Assembly: GCA_048938445.1 (NCBI GenBank)
Contig: JBHLME010000021.1
Location: forward strand, 1-43,840
DNA: 43,840 nt
Origin: Promethearchaeota archaeon
GTDB lineage: Archaea > Asgardarchaeota > Lokiarchaeia > Sigyniarchaeales > SOKP01
Direction of reading: 5' to 3'
Shown: positions 1 to 41,030 of the stretch, one piece after another
How the letters are laid out: every line of letters starts with the position of its first letter
Position numbering within the stretch: position 1 is the first letter of the stretch
Made by a program: the position numbers and the translations under genes
The notes under the pieces: model-generated
Seen by the model: only the letters and a program-made list of their open reading frames with translations
Told to the model about the DNA's origin: nothing
Databases searched by the model: none

Positions 1-807
1 TTTGAAATTTTAATTTCTATTTTATTATTAATTACTAAATTCTTCTTAATTGATTCTATAGTTAAAGAAATTATGTTCTTAATATCTTTTATTTTAACTA
101 TATTGACATTAAGTTTATTTATTTTCATCATCTCATTAAATATATTATTAATAAATCCTACAATAAAGAGAATCAAAATAAAATTAGTACCAATCGTTAT
201 TAGTCAAATTTTAATAATATTCTCATTAATTTTAGAGATCTTTACTCCAATTAACATTTATCCTAGCTTATTTTTTTTGATAGGATTAGCTTTAATTTTT
301 CTTTCTATCTATTCAGGAAGCATAATTAATGCTTTTTTAGAAATTAAAGGTAGTGAAACATTAAAAGCCCTATATATAATTAATTCAATTGACAATAGAT
401 GTCTTTATCATTATGATTTTACTCAAAAAGACCAAAATGATATTAGAATAGATAAACTATCGAGTAATTCATACCAAAAGGTTGAAGATTTATTTTTTTC
501 TCATGGAATTGAAGGAATTGAACATGTTATTGCTTCTATTACAAACACACAAGAAGATAAAATACAATCAATCTCTCAAGGAGATTCCTTATTACTATTA
601 GAACATGGTTCTAAGTCCTTTATTCCATTGACTTACGTTTTAATTGCGGATAAAGAACAAAAAAACATGAGGTTTCTTCTAAATACTTTTAAAAATCAAT
701 TTGAATCATTTTATAAAGAAATTTTGATGAATTTTCAAGTGCTGAAGGAAAATCAAGCACTCGTGTTTAGCAGTTTTGATATATTTGTAAAAAATATCAT
801 GAATTAA
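1..807 (+). CDS. Membrane protein (5'-truncated by window) with C-terminal longin-like domain
   Basis: Frame is open from base 1 to the ATG at 73. At least 3 hydrophobic helices, then a soluble domain with longin-like order (LKALYIINS..CLYHYDF / FFSHGIEGIEHVIASIT / TYVLIADK..MRFLLNTFKNQFESFY). Confidence 0.6.
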   Translation, partial: FEILISILLLITKFFLIDSIVKEIMFLISFILTILTLSLFIFIISLNILLINPTIKRIKIKLVPIVISQILIIFSLILEIFTPINIYPSLFFLIGLALIFLSIYSGSIINAFLEIKGSETLKALYIINSIDNRCLYHYDFTQKDQNDIRIDKLSSNSYQKVEDLFFSHGIEGIEHVIASITNTQEDKIQSISQGDSLLLLEHGSKSFIPLTYVLIADKEQKNMRFLLNTFKNQFESFYKEILMNFQVLKENQALVFSSFDIFVKNIMN

Positions 808-819
808 TAGTGATTATAA

Positions 820-1941
820 ATGAGTGAAGCATTTCCAATAACTGGGACTTTGAGATTACCACTATTAATCGTGGAATTAATATTTCTCATTATTTGTTTT
901 GACCTTGGAGCAACACTCTTTTCCAGGTATATCAAAACAGAAAAAACAAATAGAAATATTGAAGAACTTGGTTATTCCTTAATATTTCTTGGATTCTTCT
1001 TGATGACTTTTTTTTATATTATAAGTGAATATTATTCATCTGATGTAGAAACATCTCCATTTTTAATATGGAAAGTAGGTTCTATTAGATATCTCTTTCT
1101 TAATGCTGGTTATTTTACAATGTTCATCGTAGGAATCTTTTTTCTTTATTGTATTGAAAAAGGGAAAGTCTATTTTTACAAAAAGTACTTTTTCACCGTG
1201 CTATTTTCACTATATGCAACTGTTTTCGTATTTTTATTCATAATTGACATATATCTCACGCAACCATTCACATATGCATTCTGGATAATATACATAATAT
1301 TTTTATTAATATATTTAAAAGATTTTATTAAGAAGGTTCAAAAAAACAGGCAAAAACTTATTATAGGTGTTTTAAAGTATTTTCCTGGATTATTACTGTT
1401 AATATTTGGATTTTTTATGACGACTTTTGCTATAACCAGTATATTTGGGCACGAAGCTCGTTTTTTAGGATTTTTTCTTCAAATAATTGGTATTAGTCTC
1501 TTGTTTAACTTTTATATAACACTTCCACCATTTTCTGAATTTAATTGGTATGAAGCTATTGAAGATATTTTAATAATGAATACTGCGGGTCTTGCCATTT
1601 TTGAGAAAAAATTTCTAAAAAAAAAAGAGGAATATGATGGAGTGTTAGTAGGAGGTGTAATTACGAGCATGAAGATAATACTTGAGAGTATTACAGATAG
1701 TGACAAAGGAGGGATCTCTGTCCTGGAGAAAAAAGGAAAAACCATTATCATTTACCAATCTGATAACATGATAGGAGTAATATTTAGTACAAGAAATTTA
1801 AAAACTTTACACGTGTTATTACAAAAATTTATTTTAAGATTAGAATCCATATATGCAAATATTCTTCCTACTTGGGATGGAGAATTATCCGTTTTTGAAC
1901 CAGTTAAATTCATCTGTGATGAAATTTTTAAAGAAGTATGA
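820..1941 (+). CDS. 7TM membrane protein fused to C-terminal longin-like domain
   Basis: Seven hydrophobic segments in aa ~13-235, then IEDILIMNTAGLAIFEKKF..LVGGVITSMKIILESI..LLQKFILRLESIYANILPTWDG..F, a longin/profilin-like pattern. Confidence 0.65.
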   Translation: MSEAFPITGTLRLPLLIVELIFLIICFDLGATLFSRYIKTEKTNRNIEELGYSLIFLGFFLMTFFYIISEYYSSDVETSPFLIWKVGSIRYLFLNAGYFTMFIVGIFFLYCIEKGKVYFYKKYFFTVLFSLYATVFVFLFIIDIYLTQPFTYAFWIIYIIFLLIYLKDFIKKVQKNRQKLIIGVLKYFPGLLLLIFGFFMTTFAITSIFGHEARFLGFFLQIIGISLLFNFYITLPPFSEFNWYEAIEDILIMNTAGLAIFEKKFLKKKEEYDGVLVGGVITSMKIILESITDSDKGGISVLEKKGKTIIIYQSDNMIGVIFSTRNLKTLHVLLQKFILRLESIYANILPTWDGELSVFEPVKFICDEIFKEV

Positions 1942-1965
1942 TGTACATACTTTTGACTTGGTATA

Positions 1966-3105
1966 TTATAAAAATTTATCTAACCCCCGTTTCTGATTCA
2001 AATCTTTACTTTTTCTCAGGTAAGGTTCTATAAATTCAATGATTTTAGAATTAAAACCTTTTAAACTTGATAGCTCTCCTCGTTTATACACATTTAAAAT
2101 GGACTCATTGAGATTATTAAGATACATTCCAGCCCATAACATGGATTTATTAGATATTCCTCTTAAAGAATCATAATATTGCTTATTTAATAATAATTCT
2201 GAGATTTTATAATTCCACTTTCGATAATCTTTAGGAATCCAGCGTTTCATTCTAATCGGTAAATTATTTTTCTCAGAATAAACTAAGATTTTAGAATTTA
2301 TTTGCTTAGTATATTCATTCCATTTAATTGATTTTCCAGCATATAAATCCAATAATGGTTGAATAACATGTTTATATTGGCTATTGTTTAATTTCTTGAT
2401 AAAAAATTCTTTTTGAGAATCTCTTATGGTCAAACCAGGGGCAAATAAAATGAAGTCGGCACCTGCCTCGCTTGATTTTTGAATGACTTCCTTGATATTA
2501 TCATCATCATCTTCCATAAAGGGGATAATTGGCATGAAATTCACACCTACTTGAATATTTTGTACTTGTTCCTTAATTTTAGAGAGTGCTTCAAGTCTTT
2601 CAATTGGAGAAGAAGAGTTAGGTTCGAGAAATTTAGCAAGTTTTTTATTCATTGTGGTAATTGAAAATCCAATCGCACACCATGAGGAATCCGCAATTTT
2701 TTTAAATAATTCAATGTCTCGAGTAATTTTATTAGATTTGGTAGAAATTGTTACAGGAAACTTATGATTCGCAAGCACTTGAAGAATTTTTCTTGAATTT
2801 TCTGCTTTTTCTTCAATTGGTTGATAAGCATCGTTAACACCACCCATTGCTACTACATCTCGTAATAATTTGCGAGCGATCCTAATCTTTAAATCTAATT
2901 TTTTATGAATATCCACCTTTATCAATACTTCAGTTTCAAAATCTTGAATATCTTGTAAATAGTAGCGATCACTTCGGGCGTCGCAATAAATGCATGCATG
3001 TTCACACCCAGAATAAGGATTGATAGTATATCGACACCAAAACCATGAATCAATAAATTTCAACTTGTTCAACGCGGTTTTGAATTCTCTTTCGATATAC
3101 TTCAT
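1966..3105 (-). CDS. Radical SAM protein, spore photoproduct lyase (SplB)-like family
   Basis: NPYSGCEHACIYCDAR (CxxxCxxC), DAYQPIE and TKS motifs. Confidence 0.85.
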   Translation of the reverse strand: MKYIEREFKTALNKLKFIDSWFWCRYTINPYSGCEHACIYCDARSDRYYLQDIQDFETEVLIKVDIHKKLDLKIRIARKLLRDVVAMGGVNDAYQPIEEKAENSRKILQVLANHKFPVTISTKSNKITRDIELFKKIADSSWCAIGFSITTMNKKLAKFLEPNSSSPIERLEALSKIKEQVQNIQVGVNFMPIIPFMEDDDDNIKEVIQKSSEAGADFILFAPGLTIRDSQKEFFIKKLNNSQYKHVIQPLLDLYAGKSIKWNEYTKQINSKILVYSEKNNLPIRMKRWIPKDYRKWNYKISELLLNKQYYDSLRGISNKSMLWAGMYLNNLNESILNVYKRGELSSLKGFNSKIIEFIEPYLRKSKDLNQKRGLDKFL

Positions 3106-4957: not shown

Positions 4958-5713
4958 TTGACGGAACAACTCATGAGTATTGGGGGGAATATTTTATTCG
5001 CTATCATCCAATGGATTATCGCATTAACTTTAATATTTAGAGCTAAAAGAACTAAAGTAAAAATTTTATATCTCTTAGCATTAGCAATTTCTCTTGATGC
5101 TTTGGCAACTTCATTTTTTTCACCAGCATTTACTATATTTTTGATAGCTTTTATCATGTTCGATATTTCCGTGTGGAGTCATTTAATCTTTATAACAAAA
5201 ACGTTTTATAAAGATAAAAAAAGCCCCATTTCGATATTATTAGCGGTTATTGTACCAATTTCAATCGTGCACTGGATCATGTCGGGTATATATGACATTG
5301 GATTGGATAGGAGTGTTTTTTTATATTTTACAGTGAGATTTATATATTCCATACTCCTGTTTATAGCATATGCTTGGATGGCTTATTCATTAATAAAATC
5401 GTACTTGAGCATTAAAAATAATAAAATGGTAGAACCATGGATAAAAGCAAGATATCTTTTAGTAATTACTTATTCTGCTTTTGGAAGAATAATAATTGGA
5501 ATACTAATACATTTTAATCCACCAGACTTTTCATTTACTCACTGGAGCATATTGGCTAGTGCTTTTGTAGGTATGATCGGTTTACTTGCACTATTTTTAG
5601 CATGGGTAATGCCAAAAGGTTTTAAAAAATGGTTAAACCGAAATTTTACCGTTCAAGTAGGTGAAGAAATCCTTACTGAAGAAGAATTAATGAAACATTT
5701 GGAGGAAGCATGA
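4958..5713 (+). CDS. 7TM membrane protein (putative receptor)
   Basis: Seven hydrophobic helices ending WVMP, then a basic amphipathic helix and an acidic tail; TTG start after a purine-rich SD-like tract. Confidence 0.7.
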   Translation: MTEQLMSIGGNILFAIIQWIIALTLIFRAKRTKVKILYLLALAISLDALATSFFSPAFTIFLIAFIMFDISVWSHLIFITKTFYKDKKSPISILLAVIVPISIVHWIMSGIYDIGLDRSVFLYFTVRFIYSILLFIAYAWMAYSLIKSYLSIKNNKMVEPWIKARYLLVITYSAFGRIIIGILIHFNPPDFSFTHWSILASAFVGMIGLLALFLAWVMPKGFKKWLNRNFTVQVGEEILTEEELMKHLEEA

Positions 5714-5716
5714 CTT

Positions 5717-5980
5717 TTGAATTATATAAATATGTTTGGACAATTGTTATCAGAAAAAATTAATAATAAATTATTAGCTTGTAATGGAATACTCAGATTT
5801 GCATTTAAGGATGCAAATCTGGATCCTGATTTGTCTACATATGATGATTTTAAAATAGTTTTTAACCAATATTTAAAAGAAAGGCTTACGCGTATTGGAA
5901 TTGAAAATGCTGATGAAATCATTAAAGATATGTTATCTGAACTTGTAAAATGTCAAGCTGTTTTTGTCATGGGGACCTAA
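5717..5980 (+). CDS. Small helical soluble protein, coupled to the upstream 7TM gene
   Basis: Starts 3 nt after the 7TM stop; GGAGG lies within the end of the upstream gene; protein-like 87-aa sequence. Confidence 0.7.
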   Translation: MNYINMFGQLLSEKINNKLLACNGILRFAFKDANLDPDLSTYDDFKIVFNQYLKERLTRIGIENADEIIKDMLSELVKCQAVFVMGT

Positions 5981-20538: not shown

Positions 20539-21600
20539 ATGATAGAACGAATAATCGTGTTGGGGGGTAAAGGCGGTGTCGGTAAAAGCACTATAAGCGC
20601 GGCTACTGCTGTTGCCTTATCGGATTTACTTCCCGAAAAAAAAATTTTATTAATTTCATTTGATATTGCTCATAATATCAGCGACTTATTCGACCGAGAA
20701 GTAGGAGACAAATTAACTAAACTCACCGATAATCTTTGGGGTATTGAACCCGATCCCGATGTATATGCTGAAGAATACACTGAAGAATTTAATTCAAAAA
20801 TGCGTGAGCTCATGAAAAGAATGCCAATCGTTGGTCAAATTCCTCAAATTAAGAATTTCATTGATACAACGATGACTTCTGATTCAATACCATTAGCTTT
20901 AAAGAATAGCATGTTTTTCCAGAAAATTTTAGACGCTGATAATAGCATTTATAGAGATCAAAACGTAGAAGCAATTGATTTCGATATTGTTGTGGCAGAT
21001 TTTCCTCCTACAGGTAACATGATCGCATTATTTGACATACCAGAGGATCAAGTTCGAGTTTTATTAAAATACACCTTAAATTTCTTTAATTCTATCAGAG
21101 ATGCTGTAAAGACATTTCGAAAAACAATGATGAAACCTCTTGCCAAGTTATTCAGCCCGATAAGTGGTCAAGATACCAGAAGAGAAATCGGTAAGGAAGT
21201 TTTTAAAATGCTTAAAGAACTCGAGGAAAGGGGAACGAGAATAAGTGAATTGATTCATAAAAAAGGTTCTCTTCGATTAGTAACCATTGCTGAAAAACCA
21301 AGTTTTGAGGAAATAAAGAGAGCGAGAGACTTATCGAGGAAATACATAACACTTGATGGTGTCCATATCAACATGCTTACTCCAAAAAAATCTGCTAAAA
21401 AATGCAAATTTTGTGGGAAAATGCATACCCAACAAAATAAATACATGACCGAAATAAAAGAAGAATTTAAAAATCTAACAATCTGGGAATCTGATAAGCT
21501 CGAAGATGAACCCATCGGTTTAGATGGATTGAGAAGGCTTGCTCGTGAAGTATATGGAGATGTTAATCCTGAAGAAATTTTAACTCCCAATAAAAAATAA
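20539..21600 (+). CDS. ArsA/Get3(TRC40)-family ATPase
   Basis: GKGGVGKST P-loop, SFDIAH (switch I variant), DFPPTG (switch II variant), CKFC and EPIGLDGL. Confidence 0.9.
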   Translation: MIERIIVLGGKGGVGKSTISAATAVALSDLLPEKKILLISFDIAHNISDLFDREVGDKLTKLTDNLWGIEPDPDVYAEEYTEEFNSKMRELMKRMPIVGQIPQIKNFIDTTMTSDSIPLALKNSMFFQKILDADNSIYRDQNVEAIDFDIVVADFPPTGNMIALFDIPEDQVRVLLKYTLNFFNSIRDAVKTFRKTMMKPLAKLFSPISGQDTRREIGKEVFKMLKELEERGTRISELIHKKGSLRLVTIAEKPSFEEIKRARDLSRKYITLDGVHINMLTPKKSAKKCKFCGKMHTQQNKYMTEIKEEFKNLTIWESDKLEDEPIGLDGLRRLAREVYGDVNPEEILTPNKK

Positions 21601-32711: not shown

Positions 32712-34976
32712 TTGTTTGATGCATTAATCGAAAACTCCCCTGATGCAATAGCTATAGCTAATATAAAAGGAATCATAATAGAATGTTCAGACAGTTTTTT
32801 GAAGCTTTTTGGGTATGAACCCAAGGAACCTAATGATTTAGTAGGAAAAGATGGATTTAATCTTCTCATTGAAGAAGACAAGCAAAGATCAGGAGAAGAT
32901 TATAAACAATTATTAAAAGATGGTTTTTTAAATGATAAAGAAGGAACATTTATAAGAAAGGATGGAACTAAATTCATAGGTTCATTAAACATGAGCATTG
33001 TTAATGATGCAAATAAAAATCCTCTTTATATTATTGGAATTGTAAGAGACATCACACGACATAAAGAATTGGAAAAAGCCTCAATTGAAAAAGATAAATT
33101 ATTACAACAATCTGAAGAAAGATTCCGGATAATTCTAGATAGTATTGTAAATATCGTTGTAGAAACGGATATTAATGGAACAATTACTTATATAAGTCCT
33201 CAAGTATATGATACTCTCGGATATAAACAAGAAGAATTGTTAGGAAAGGTTGCTTTTAATTATACACATCCAGAGGATCTTGATGGTCTTAAGATGATTA
33301 TTCAAAATTCGATATCAACAAAAAAAACTGTAATATATGAACTCAGAGTAAGACATAAGAATGGAAAATATGTTCCTATGGCATCATATGGAAATATAAA
33401 AGAGATTAATGGAGAGTTAAGGATTATTGGAAGTTTAGCAGATATTACTGAAAAAAAAGAAAATGAACTGAAATTAATAACTTCAGAAGAAAAATATCGT
33501 AGACTATATGAAACGGCTCAAGTAGGTTTTTGGACTTCCCGGATGAAGGATGACCTTATAATTAATGCCAATGATAAAATGGCAAGCATTATTGGATTAA
33601 CAAAAGCAAATGATATTATCGGAAATAGATTAGATGATTATATTAAGGATAATTTTACAGTAAACTTTTATAGTTTATTAAAAGAATTCAATGTTGTATC
33701 CAATTTTGAAGCAAAATTAGTAAATGCCAGTGGTGTTGAAAAGGCAGTATCTATAACTGCTCGCTTGTTTCAAGAACAAAATGAAGTTGATATCATCGAA
33801 GGATTCATGATTGACATTACAAATTTAAAAAAAATCCAAGATGCATTAAAAGAATCTGAAGAAATGTTTCAGTTGGTTCTTAATAATATACCCCAATTTA
33901 TTTTTTGGAAAGATATAGATTCTCGTTATATGGGATGTAATGAGAATTTCGCACGAGTAGCTGGAGTAAAAAGTCCTGAGGAAATTAAAGGAAAAACTGA
34001 TAAAGACCTAGCATGGCAAAAAGAAGAAGCAGAGTTCTTTCATGAAACTGATGCGCTCGTGATGGAATCAAATACTCCAGAATACCATATTACCGAACAA
34101 CAACTCCAAGCTGATGGAAAGCATGCATGGCTAGATACAAATAAAATTCCCTTACATAACTCTGAAGGGAATGTTGTAGGACTTCTTGGAACATATGAAG
34201 ATATTACTGAACGTGTTAATGCTGAAATTGCTTTAAAAAAATCCGAAATACAATATCGTGAAGCATTCCAGAATGCTAATCTGCTTAAGGATTTATTTTC
34301 TCATGATATCAATAATATTCTTCAAAGTATCCAAACTGCAAATGAGATTTATGATTTAGAAGTAGATAAGGGAAATTATGATAAATTAAAAGAAATTACA
34401 GATATTATTAGAATGCAAATTAATCGAGGTGCAAAATTAGTAAATAATGTAAGAAAGTTAACGTTACTAGATAATACGGAGGTGAAGCTTGAACCAGTTA
34501 ACGTGATTAAATACTTAGATAATTCTATAAACTCTATTAAAAACATATTTCCCAATAAAAATATAATAGTTCAAAAAAAAATCCCAGGAAATACCTTGAA
34601 GATTCAAGCTAATGAATTCTTATGCGATATTTTTGATAATATCCTATTGAATGCTGTTATGTATAATGATAATAGTATAATTAAAGTAAAGATTAATATA
34701 TCAAGAGAAAAAAGTAAAGATCAAAAATTCATTCGAATTTCAATTCAGGATAATGGTATTGGAGTAGAAGATATTCGAAAAGACACTATCTTTGAGAGAA
34801 TTTATAATAAAGATAAAACAATAAGTGGTGTAGGATTAGGATTGTCCTTGGTAAAAAAGATCGTGGAGAGTTTTAATGGTAAAATTTGGATAGAAGATGT
34901 TTTACATGGAGATCCTTCAAAAGGAAGTAATTTTGTCATATTAATTCCCGAAGCTTTCATAACAATGAAGTTTTAG
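32712..34976 (+). CDS. Cytoplasmic sensor histidine kinase with four PAS domains
   Basis: Four PAS units ending RDIT/ADIT/IDIT/EDIT; H-box SHDINN; N-box NILLNAVMY; DNGIG; GVGLGL. Confidence 0.93.
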   Translation: MFDALIENSPDAIAIANIKGIIIECSDSFLKLFGYEPKEPNDLVGKDGFNLLIEEDKQRSGEDYKQLLKDGFLNDKEGTFIRKDGTKFIGSLNMSIVNDANKNPLYIIGIVRDITRHKELEKASIEKDKLLQQSEERFRIILDSIVNIVVETDINGTITYISPQVYDTLGYKQEELLGKVAFNYTHPEDLDGLKMIIQNSISTKKTVIYELRVRHKNGKYVPMASYGNIKEINGELRIIGSLADITEKKENELKLITSEEKYRRLYETAQVGFWTSRMKDDLIINANDKMASIIGLTKANDIIGNRLDDYIKDNFTVNFYSLLKEFNVVSNFEAKLVNASGVEKAVSITARLFQEQNEVDIIEGFMIDITNLKKIQDALKESEEMFQLVLNNIPQFIFWKDIDSRYMGCNENFARVAGVKSPEEIKGKTDKDLAWQKEEAEFFHETDALVMESNTPEYHITEQQLQADGKHAWLDTNKIPLHNSEGNVVGLLGTYEDITERVNAEIALKKSEIQYREAFQNANLLKDLFSHDINNILQSIQTANEIYDLEVDKGNYDKLKEITDIIRMQINRGAKLVNNVRKLTLLDNTEVKLEPVNVIKYLDNSINSIKNIFPNKNIIVQKKIPGNTLKIQANEFLCDIFDNILLNAVMYNDNSIIKVKINISREKSKDQKFIRISIQDNGIGVEDIRKDTIFERIYNKDKTISGVGLGLSLVKKIVESFNGKIWIEDVLHGDPSKGSNFVILIPEAFITMKF

Positions 34977-40559: not shown

Positions 40560-41030
40560 TTGATATGTTTGAGTTATTCTCGGGATGAACAAATATTAAA
40601 AAAAATTATAAATACGATTATTAATAGCACGGCAGGATTGATACATGTTCTAATCGTAGATGATACGGGAATAACCATTTTAAGTGAGTCTAAATTCCAT
40701 TTCATGGATAATGATACTACAGTGGAGAAAATCGGTGCTATAGGAAGCGCAGTATTCATTGCTAATGAAGAACAAGGGCAAATTTTAGGATATGGAAATA
40801 TAGGAATTCAAATAACGGAATACGAGGATGGAATGATTTTTTCAGCAAAAGCAGGGAATGGTGTATTATGCATTGCCACAGATCCGAACGTTCAAATAGG
40901 ATTCATACGAGCTATATTAAAGAAGTATGCTCCAACGGTAACTAAAGTATTGTCCAGTTATTTAAAGCAAGAACAAGTTTCATTAAGTGACGATATAAAA
41001 GAAATTTTATCAGAAGATTTGACATCCTAA
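40560..41030 (+). CDS. Roadblock/LC7 (MglB/LAMTOR-like) protein
   Basis: LIHVLIVDDTGITILS..EKIGAIGSAVF..QITEYEDGMIF..GVLCIATDPNVQIGFIRAILK. Confidence 0.85.
   Translation: MICLSYSRDEQILKKIINTIINSTAGLIHVLIVDDTGITILSESKFHFMDNDTTVEKIGAIGSAVFIANEEQGQILGYGNIGIQITEYEDGMIFSAKAGNGVLCIATDPNVQIGFIRAILKKYAPTVTKVLSSYLKQEQVSLSDDIKEILSEDLTS

Follow-up and report, generated by a model that had tools for sequence, protein, structure and literature searches.

The genomes of Asgard archaea contain genes for dozens of small GTPases that resemble those of eukaryotes, and the regulators of these GTPases and their route to the membrane form a gap in the picture. In the passages that treat them, the Asgard longins known so far are soluble or are fused to a GTPase, to TRAPPC3 or to two-component domains (PMC10933270; 10.1101/2020.10.19.343400). 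For MK-D1, the text of Tran et al. (2024, PMC10933270) on gene arrangement states that a GTPase gene does not, in general, share an operon with a roadblock or longin gene, and for Lokiarchaeum, CAAX and prenyltransferases are listed as absent in Table 1 of Dey et al. (2016, PMC4917890). TRAPPC1 and TRAPPC4, two longins of the TRAPP core, are placed in the corresponding passages of Galindo and Munro (2022, PMC10152722) at the centre of catalysis in the exchange factor for Rab1/Rab11. Here we describe a different arrangement in a Promethearchaeota archaeon (assembly GCA_048938445.1, contig JBHLME010000021.1). The window, that is, the whole analysed stretch of 43,840 nt, is the start of contig C94 (G000:C94:1-43840) of genome G000, which comprises 4.63 Mb in 256 contigs. 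It opens with two adjacent genes, A and B, each of which encodes a polytopic membrane domain fused to a C-terminal longin-like domain. The best overall explanation, to which we give about an even chance, is that A and B form a membrane-fixed longin complex that would dock a Ras/Rab-like GTPase. Such a platform is favoured because of the fold, the likeness to cores of Rab-directed guanine nucleotide exchange factors (GEFs), the obligate-looking linkage of A and B, and the adjacency of GTPase genes.

An ordered pair of membrane-longin genes

How firmly are the two genes tied to each other? The 40 nearest genomes, which belong to one order and four families, were compared, and 33 A-type hits were found outside G000. 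In 30 of these 33, a B-type open reading frame (ORF) lies directly downstream on the same strand, mostly with a gap of 25 nt or less; of the remaining three, two lie within ~230 nt of a contig end and one stands at a contig start. Among the loci of these 40 related genomes where the contig allowed the check, no A-type gene without B was found. The order of genes is A-B-A-B at G013:C50 and A-B-B at G010:C186. These two loci are syntenic with the window because they share the EMG1-Rpp21-S19e-L31e-eIF6 block as common neighbours, and G013:C50 also adjoins the radical-SAM gene.

Trees were made from 29 paired A and B proteins, and the partnerless rows (P0020, L079, L080 and five metagenome A-types) were left out. 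The two trees have 12 of 26 splits in common, among them the deepest one, which separates two pair lineages. With labels shuffled at random (2000 trials), the mean was 0.2 shared splits and the maximum 3, and when partners were swapped within genomes only, the mean was 5.85 and 0.15% of 2000 trials reached 12. A genome holds up to five pairs, which come from two old pair lineages, and seven genomes hold both lineages. The pairs have duplicated as units, and this fits long-term co-inheritance of specific partners.

Outside the order, 20 loci with 23 genes were collected from five other families; 17 of these loci hold a single gene and three hold a tandem pair. All 23 proteins prefer the B-type profile (117-159 bits) to the A-type profile (65-105 bits), where the B-type profile was built from a somewhat broader set than the A-type one. 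Conservation of the tandem across Asgard genomes, which the initial annotation had put forward as a check of its idea, is thus seen inside the order, where A-then-B is kept at 30 of 33, but not in the other families with their 17 single-gene loci out of 20. Our own reading of the sequences is that a B-like single gene would be ancestral and that A may be a faster-evolving partner which arose in this order.

The two proteins themselves are ancient paralogues. Profile-profile alignment by hhalign joins them over their full length (324 columns, 16% identity, probability 98.7, E 1.6e-16), and BLASTP between A and B gives no match. Close homologues in a set of 5.8 billion proteins number 18 for B and 6-8 for A, and the only name given by the sources is 'hypothetical protein'. 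A HMMER scan of 1.84 billion representatives returned 1175 clusters at E<=1e-3, of which 451 reach 1e-10 and 133 reach 1e-30; most are ~360 aa long, and neighbours in the ESM Atlas are 'hypothetical protein' clusters of 93-100% Archaea, most commonly Promethearchaeota or Thorarchaeota. Family hits at 1e-15 occur in at least 55 genomes of a 201-genome sample of the phylum, in which nine candidates were scored per genome. A pattern-based locus search with B alone gave 166 pattern matches and no relative among them. G000 itself has 33 matches to the family profile, including two further neighbouring pairs and relatives that consist of transmembrane (TM) helices only, and the longin module is also found inside G000 proteins of 686-1489 aa. 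The neighbouring pairs are at G000:C93:16925-19210 (-) and G000:C159:16306-18913 (-), and one member of the C93 pair has an in-frame TAA. At G000:C38:5418-6846 (+), a longin-module protein (686-aa frame) is followed by a Ras-family gene within 600 nt.

At the window locus, gene A occupies 1..807 (+) and gene B occupies 820..1941 (+), so that the two co-oriented genes 12 nt apart of the initial annotation are confirmed by the ORFs. B is complete with 373 aa. The 5' end of A is open: the contig starts inside the gene, the first ~54 codons are missing, and 268 aa are present of ~322 aa in the complete protein. The 12-nt spacer (808..819, +) reads TAGTGATTATAA. Within it, GTGAT at 810-814, 5 nt before the ATG of B, is taken by us to be Shine-Dalgarno-like, with the 3' end of archaeal 16S rRNA in mind. 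No terminator-like site was found between A and B. A scan for sigma-70 promoters gave 28 sites against 23.1 expected, a bacterial-type scan that is not meaningful for an archaeon.

The missing 5' end of A can be recovered from elsewhere. Contig C215 carries on its minus strand a complete A-type gene, A', and a B-type gene, B', which share 62-65% identity with A and B; after them come 90 codons from the start of a further A-type gene. The last 108 nt of C215 equal window 1-108 at 107 of 108 nt and supply the missing 5' end of A. A Logan contig of run X1 (4287 nt) covers window 1-2091 and, after 357 more letters, contains B-like sequence, bridging B'-A-B; another, of run X2, reaches 421 nt past the start of the window. 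Run X1 is possibly from the source sample and hence not independent, while X2 is another sample of the same study. Because of the C215 overlap and the bridging Logan contigs, the locus is a tandem array A'-B'-A-B that was split by the assembly, and gene A is complete in reality. The single mismatch is at window position 32, which is T in the window and C in C215 and in the Logan contigs of both runs, and which changes one residue of A (I to T); this T probably reflects an error at the end of the assembly or a variant of the strain.

Membrane bundles and longin domains

B was modelled by AlphaFold2 from an 18-sequence alignment with a predicted local distance difference test (pLDDT) score of 75.8. 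The model has seven TM helices (12-39, 47-69, 89-115, 124-142, 147-176, 178-209 and 211-234), which make up the bundle of residues 12-234 (853..1521, +). Since A is truncated, the complete paralogue A' (contig C215, 324 aa, 62% identical to A) was modelled in its place from a 37-sequence alignment (pLDDT 77.7). This model shows five TM helices instead of seven (2-36, 43-71, 75-106, 109-137 and 142-160), and then a linker helix at 163-176. Residue n of A corresponds to residue n+56 of A', and by this correspondence the membrane part of A in the window (1..312, +) holds the last ~3.5 of the five predicted helices. The initial annotation had given each protein a polytopic membrane domain, with seven helices in the complete one; B has these seven, and A' has five in the model. 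A-type relatives of ~380 aa carry in the alignment ~70 residues more than the A-type proteins of the window's genus. In that genus these ~70 residues, that is, two helices, were lost, and the junction FPxFLEFxW is degenerate (INAFLEIKG). In B the corresponding junction motif PPFxEFxW (residues 236-243), just before the longin domain, is conserved.

From the translation and the model, loops rich in K/R are located in B at 35-48, 113-123 and 167-186, after TM1, TM3 and TM5. By the positive-inside rule, these loops suggest a topology with the N-terminus outside and the C-terminus inside. Structure matches of the B bundle by VIA are ACER3 (Z 12.6), adhesion and class C G protein-coupled receptors (GPCRs; Z 11.6-12.2) and adiponectin receptor 2 (Z 10.2), where it is to be noted that Z below ~13 is common among unrelated helical bundles. 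For the TM parts, matches to GPCRs are at Z 10-12.5, all under this caution line. The modelled TM part of B is readable only as a seven-helix bundle because its Z scores fall within the helical-bundle background, a Z of ~12 to GPCRs being in the range of unrelated bundles. No Pfam 7tm match was obtained for A or B. The broad alignment has nine invariant or near-invariant columns, of which the TM part holds only E113 and G197, and the closer B family keeps more residues in TM helices and loops. An enzyme of PAQR or ceramidase type was considered for the TM bundle and rejected, as conserved metal-ligand residues are absent.

A separate observation concerns rhodopsin. The A-type profile matches TM1-ICL1-TM2 of bovine rhodopsin at E 0.026 (16.7 bits, bias 2.5), which is below significance. 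The match involves profile positions 15-69, the part that is missing from the truncated A of the window, and sets L-P-L-N-x-I-L-L of the A-type against T-P-L-N-Y-I-L-L at an equal topological place; it may come from TM composition.

The C-terminal domains give a clearer picture. In B, residues 247-369 (1558..1926, +) are predicted by AlphaFold2 to have the topology beta-beta-alpha-beta-beta-beta-alpha-alpha, with strands 247-254 and 259-264, helix 276-293, strands 298-304, 307-313 and 317-323, and helices 328-345 and 356-369. In A', the domain of residues 177-323 shares this topology and consists in the model of strands 177-184 and 190-195, helix 215-237, strands 246-258 and 266-273, and helices 279-299 and 308-323. 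The linker helix of A' precedes beta1 and is outside the structural matches. By homology to A', the longin domain of A comprises residues ~121-268 (361..804, +).

For the B domain, the matches by VIA, a search that does not depend on Foldseek, are synbindin (Z 13.2, root-mean-square deviation (rmsd) 3.4, 123 aligned), Sec22 (Z 12.1, 2.9, 118), VAMP7 (Z 12.0), CPLANE (Z 11.5) and the Lokiarchaeota longin 8yqg_B (Z 10.6). For the A' domain they are Bet5 (Z 12.3, rmsd 2.8, 128 aligned), TRAPPC1 (11.9), Ccz1 (11.6 and 11.4), MON1A (11.4), BLOC-3 (11.3) and CPLANE (11.3). Longins of Rab GEFs (synbindin/TRAPPC4, Bet5/TRAPPC1, Ccz1/Mon1, BLOC-3 and CPLANE) are thus among the best structural matches of both domains, at Z 11-13. 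In Foldseek, which the initial annotation had suggested running on these domains, B finds AP-2 sigma best (2.3e-4), then zeta-COP and Sec22b, and then roadblock proteins; A' has its best row at 2.6e-3 and none at 1e-3, and all its top rows are longins. A roadblock/MglB fold was considered and rejected, as both models end in two C-terminal helices and have no N-terminal roadblock helix. MglB and LAMTOR chains score under the longins for B (Foldseek 1.9e-3 to 9e-3, 78-112 aligned columns).

Sequence profiles reach the same fold from a greater distance. Neither Pfam nor NCBIfam has a model that matches A or B, with zero Pfam families even at E<=1, and for the longin-clan families PF13774, PF04099, PF01217 and PF19036 both proteins are under the curated cut-offs. 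Among 73 relatives, weak Pfam matches to the longin clan appear for Sybindin (5), Clat_adaptor_s (3), Fuz_longin_1 (2, the best at 4.7e-5), Intu_longin_1 (1) and Longin (1). The family profile reaches Trs23 at E 0.0014 when built from 73 sequences and at 0.27 when built from 18, a marginal support. Judged by the models, both C-terminal domains have the longin fold, and in this respect the initial annotation, which had put a longin-like domain at the C-terminus of each protein, is borne out by the models, VIA and Foldseek.

Small GTPase genes and the readings of the pair

If the longins of A and B serve small GTPases, is there any trace of such GTPases around the genes? Flank ORFs were clustered at the pair loci of 20 relatives, ~6 kb either side, and one recurrent non-syntenic neighbour family appeared in these 20 loci, made up of ORFs of 140-215 aa. 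Pfam identified eight of the first nine neighbours as Ras (PF00071, E 6e-20 to 3e-38) and one as Arf, and a stop-to-stop rescan added one more. A GTPase gene is adjacent at 9 of the 20 loci, and the 10 GTPase ORFs fill 10 of 38 adjacent slots compared with 0 of 160 other ORFs. Because the idea had formed on these 20 loci, 13 further A-B loci were then fetched from other genomes of the family. In this second set, an adjacent GTPase is found at 5 of 13 loci and in 7 of 22 adjacent slots, compared with 3 of 63 others, all of them PF00071 at 1e-34 to 1e-48; two of the three non-adjacent GTPases are second genes of a GTPase cluster beside the pair. Over both sets together, a GTPase gene adjoins the pair at 14 of the 33 loci of relatives, and GTPases occupy 17 of 60 adjacent slots compared with 3 of the 223 other flank ORFs. 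The arrangements vary, being upstream, downstream, divergent, convergent or on both sides, and are met in either pair lineage. In the neighbour GTPases, the motifs G1, G3, G4 and G5 are intact, and the C-terminus carries no cysteine motif. The GTPase link of the initial annotation is consequently visible at many loci of relatives, though not at the window locus itself.

Some features of these GTPases may be recorded. Several members of family f1 have Glu/Asp where DxxGQ has its catalytic Gln (WDFGGE, WDLVGE, WDFIGD), and family f4 keeps GGQ. Four Ras-like genes (L096:2021-2587:-, L092:280-885:-, L098:6181-6726:+ and L085:5172-5759:-) have an intact P-loop in frame, and no ATG, GTG or TTG occurs in the stretch that leads from the upstream stop to the P-loop; their shared N-terminus, I-S/T-x-D-x-AFK, suggests an ATT/ATA-type or other unusual start. 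The pairs at L134 and L135, from two genomes of one genus, have GTPase genes on either side, in part coding for ~525-aa proteins with a Ras domain in the middle (residues ~175-340; L134:2643-4232:+, L134:7491-9068:+, L135:588-2159:- and L135:5418-7007:-), whose N- and C-terminal parts are unassigned, together with a small Ras-like gene. No single G000 gene stands out as the orthologue of the neighbour GTPases, since profile scores fall smoothly over 49 matches; the top one is C244:9341 (2.4e-66), followed by C73:6860 and C75:22333.

How could the pieces work together? A and B would be two subunits of one membrane-embedded complex, B as a seven-helix protein and A as a five-helix derivative of their common ancestor, with both longin domains facing the cytoplasm. 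The two longin domains would pair in the way seen in all solved GTPase platforms of the longin or roadblock type, and the longin pair would dock a soluble Ras/Rab-like small GTPase at the membrane. The platform might act as an exchange factor, as a scaffold for a GTPase-activating protein or as a plain membrane anchor, and being fixed in the membrane it would supply the anchor that the Cys-less GTPases are missing. It is rather probable that A and B form a heteromer, and the chances that their complex binds a small GTPase seem about equal either way. That the TM bundle senses a ligand is a tentative idea and on the doubtful side, and that the complex is specifically a GEF is unlikely. It would be less probable again that the asymmetric 7TM/5TM heterodimer is a putative receptor-exchange factor whose extracellular or membrane face senses a signal and whose longins load GTP onto a Rab-like GTPase without a lipid anchor.

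A number of observations weigh against a GTPase-docking complex. Any tandem genes that are transcribed together should show close linkage and mirrored trees, neither of which is proof of contact. Longins of SNAREs and of sigma/zeta coat subunits, which work without GTPases, match B as well as GEF longins do. No GTPase gene stands next to the pair at the window locus, at G013:C50 or at G010:C186, nor in the 3.9 kb examined of C215. G000 has 88 Ras-family matches, the closest of which to any A-B pair is 18 kb away. Adjacent GTPases are found at 0 of the 20 loci (23 genes) from the five other families of the phylum; pairing and GTPase adjacency are not general to the family because these out-of-order loci are mostly single-gene and none is GTPase-adjacent. 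Even inside the order, the Fisher values of the adjacency (2e-8, 0.0024 and 3e-10) overstate the case, because the relatives' loci share ancestry.

Then, might A and B be separate receptors or other membrane proteins, each alone or homodimeric, which are neighbours merely as co-transcribed tandem duplicates? We consider this unlikely. The single-gene loci that prevail in the other families (17 of 20) speak for it, and all 23 genes there are B-like, so a single-gene and presumably homomeric form works; the A-B-B arrangement at G010:C186 points the same way, as do Asgard roadblock proteins, which crystallise as homodimers according to PDB titles and to the structural passages of Tran et al. (2024, PMC10933270). 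Yet A-then-B is kept at 30 of 33 despite an A-B identity of 16%, it is pairs and not single genes that duplicate, and a B-less A-type gene was not met where the contig allowed the check. A similarly small probability is given to longins that are not GTPase platforms at all, but adaptor or regulatory modules of the sigma-adaptin, zeta-COP or SNARE type, or an autoinhibitory lid; as part of this explanation, the real function would be an activity of the membrane bundle, such as transport, PAQR/ceramidase-like lipid hydrolysis or scaffolding. The best Foldseek matches of B, which are coat sigma/zeta subunits and Sec22b, agree with it, and so do ACER3 (Z 12.6) and adiponectin receptor 2 (Z 10.2) among the bundle matches, with ACER3 at the top, and the lack of a GTPase neighbour at the window locus. 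Ras-family adjacency at 14 of 33 relatives' loci, however, has no place in it, and the invariant or near-invariant columns do not include the conserved His/Asp set of the PAQR type.

A third explanation touches only gene A, which could be a duplicate in decay and on its way to a pseudogene, and B alone would be functional here. The loss of two TM helices and of the junction motif in the window's genus speaks for this, and it counts against the paired complex insofar as it may be decay rather than specialisation. Nevertheless, the short form keeps an open frame in five sequences (at least two genomes and two metagenome sources, 51-62% identity), its longin residues remain conserved, and five TM helices still leave the longin cytoplasmic in a confident model (pLDDT 77.7). 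We regard decay of A as very improbable, and a membrane-fixed A-B complex with a docked GTPase remains the preferred reading.

The rest of the window is that of an archaeal chromosome with G+C of ~20-33%. Pfam identifies housekeeping genes for S19e, L31e, eIF6, prefoldin, FtsY, TFB, Gar1 and archaeosine TGT. At 4958..5713 (+), a 251-aa polytopic membrane ORF without Pfam match lies 3 nt upstream of an 87-aa ORF at 5717..5980 (+), and neither of them matched the 7TM-longin profile in the search of their own genome. A 156-aa ORF at 40560..41030 (+) has a weak Pfam match to MAPKK1_Int (LAMTOR3/MP1, roadblock-type; E 1.9e-4, below the cut-off). An ArsA/Get3-type ATPase at 20539..21600 (+; PF02374, 3e-54) and, at 32712..34976 (+), a histidine kinase of 754 aa that contains four PAS stretches have no evident link to the A-B pair.

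The pair compared with known longin platforms

What is new here, and what is not? Asgard longin and roadblock proteins and their fusions to GTPases are already known, and what A and B add is a putative longin platform in a membrane-integrated two-gene form; the Ras-family GTPase gene beside the pair is the new point. In the searched texts, with the asCOG supplementary table of Liu outside the search, polytopic membrane-longin fusions were not found described in print, nor was their occurrence in pairs or the presence of GTPase genes around them. Term searches gave no TM-longin fusion in the searchable text of Tran 2024, Dey 2016, the Liu 2020 preprint or a Nat Microbiol 2026 modelling paper, nor in Eme 2023 (main text and six supplements) or a 2026 structural-clustering preprint. 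In the family listing of that preprint, '7TM proteins' and 'TRAPPC2-like longins' are separate families of eukaryotic signature proteins, credited to Eme or Liu. A conserved two-gene module that stands repeatedly beside a Ras-like gene names concrete A-B-GTPase trios. If the GTPase link is true, membrane-integrated GTPase platforms would predate eukaryotic endomembranes.

The soluble longin and roadblock proteins of Asgard archaea have phylum and fold in common with the pair and are thought to regulate Asgard small GTPases. The gene layout described for MK-D1 (PMC10933270), as far as that text deals with it, contrasts with the GTPase adjacency at 14 of 33 A-B loci.

The TRAPP core provides the nearest eukaryotic likeness. 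Bet5/TRAPPC1 and Trs23/TRAPPC4 are, like A and B, two paralogous longins on separate chains; A' has its best structural match in Bet5/TRAPPC1 and B in synbindin, the family profile reaches Trs23 at E 0.0014, and the partner genes near A-B are likewise Ras/Rab-like. Unlike the pair, the subunits of TRAPP are soluble, with members of the Bet3 family at their flanks, while the longins of A and B are fused to a polytopic membrane domain. Near the pair no Bet3-family gene is seen: in the 20 pair loci the GTPase is the one conserved neighbour, and Pfam gives no TRAPP-domain match in the 34 other ORFs of the window, the rest of the genome not being searched. Orthology to TRAPP is not claimed, because the Z scores of the longin subfamilies are tied within ~1-2 units. 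Mon1-Ccz1, BLOC-3 (HPS1-HPS4) and CPLANE (Fuzzy-Inturned) are also paralogous longin heterodimers, in which Rab is bound via the first longin pair, and VIA places these tri-longin Rab GEFs at Z 11.3-11.6 to A' and 11.5 to B. They differ in having three longins per chain and no TM helix and in being recruited by lipids or proteins, whereas A and B have one membrane-fixed longin each.

The receptor of the signal recognition particle (SRP) resembles the pair in another way, since a longin-type SRX domain and a small GTPase are held at the membrane through a TM anchor. The SRX domain works as an effector and is not known as a dimer platform. In VIA, the SRP receptor chain 5ck3_A matches B at Z 10.7 and A' at 10.1. 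There, the TM anchor is on the GTPase SR-beta and the longin of SR-alpha is soluble, and A-B would be the reverse. Finally, GPCRs, including the class C GABA-B heterodimers, resemble B in seven helices, in an N-out/C-in topology that is suggested for B, and in a cytoplasmic element that in B would regulate a GTPase. The pair departs from them in the five helices of A, in a GTPase that would be Ras/Rab-like and not G-alpha, and in exchange that would be carried out by the fused longin instead of the receptor core. Should the receptor-exchange reading prove true after all, the pair would represent a GPCR-like logic on a longin platform that was later used in soluble TRAPP and Mon1-Ccz1.

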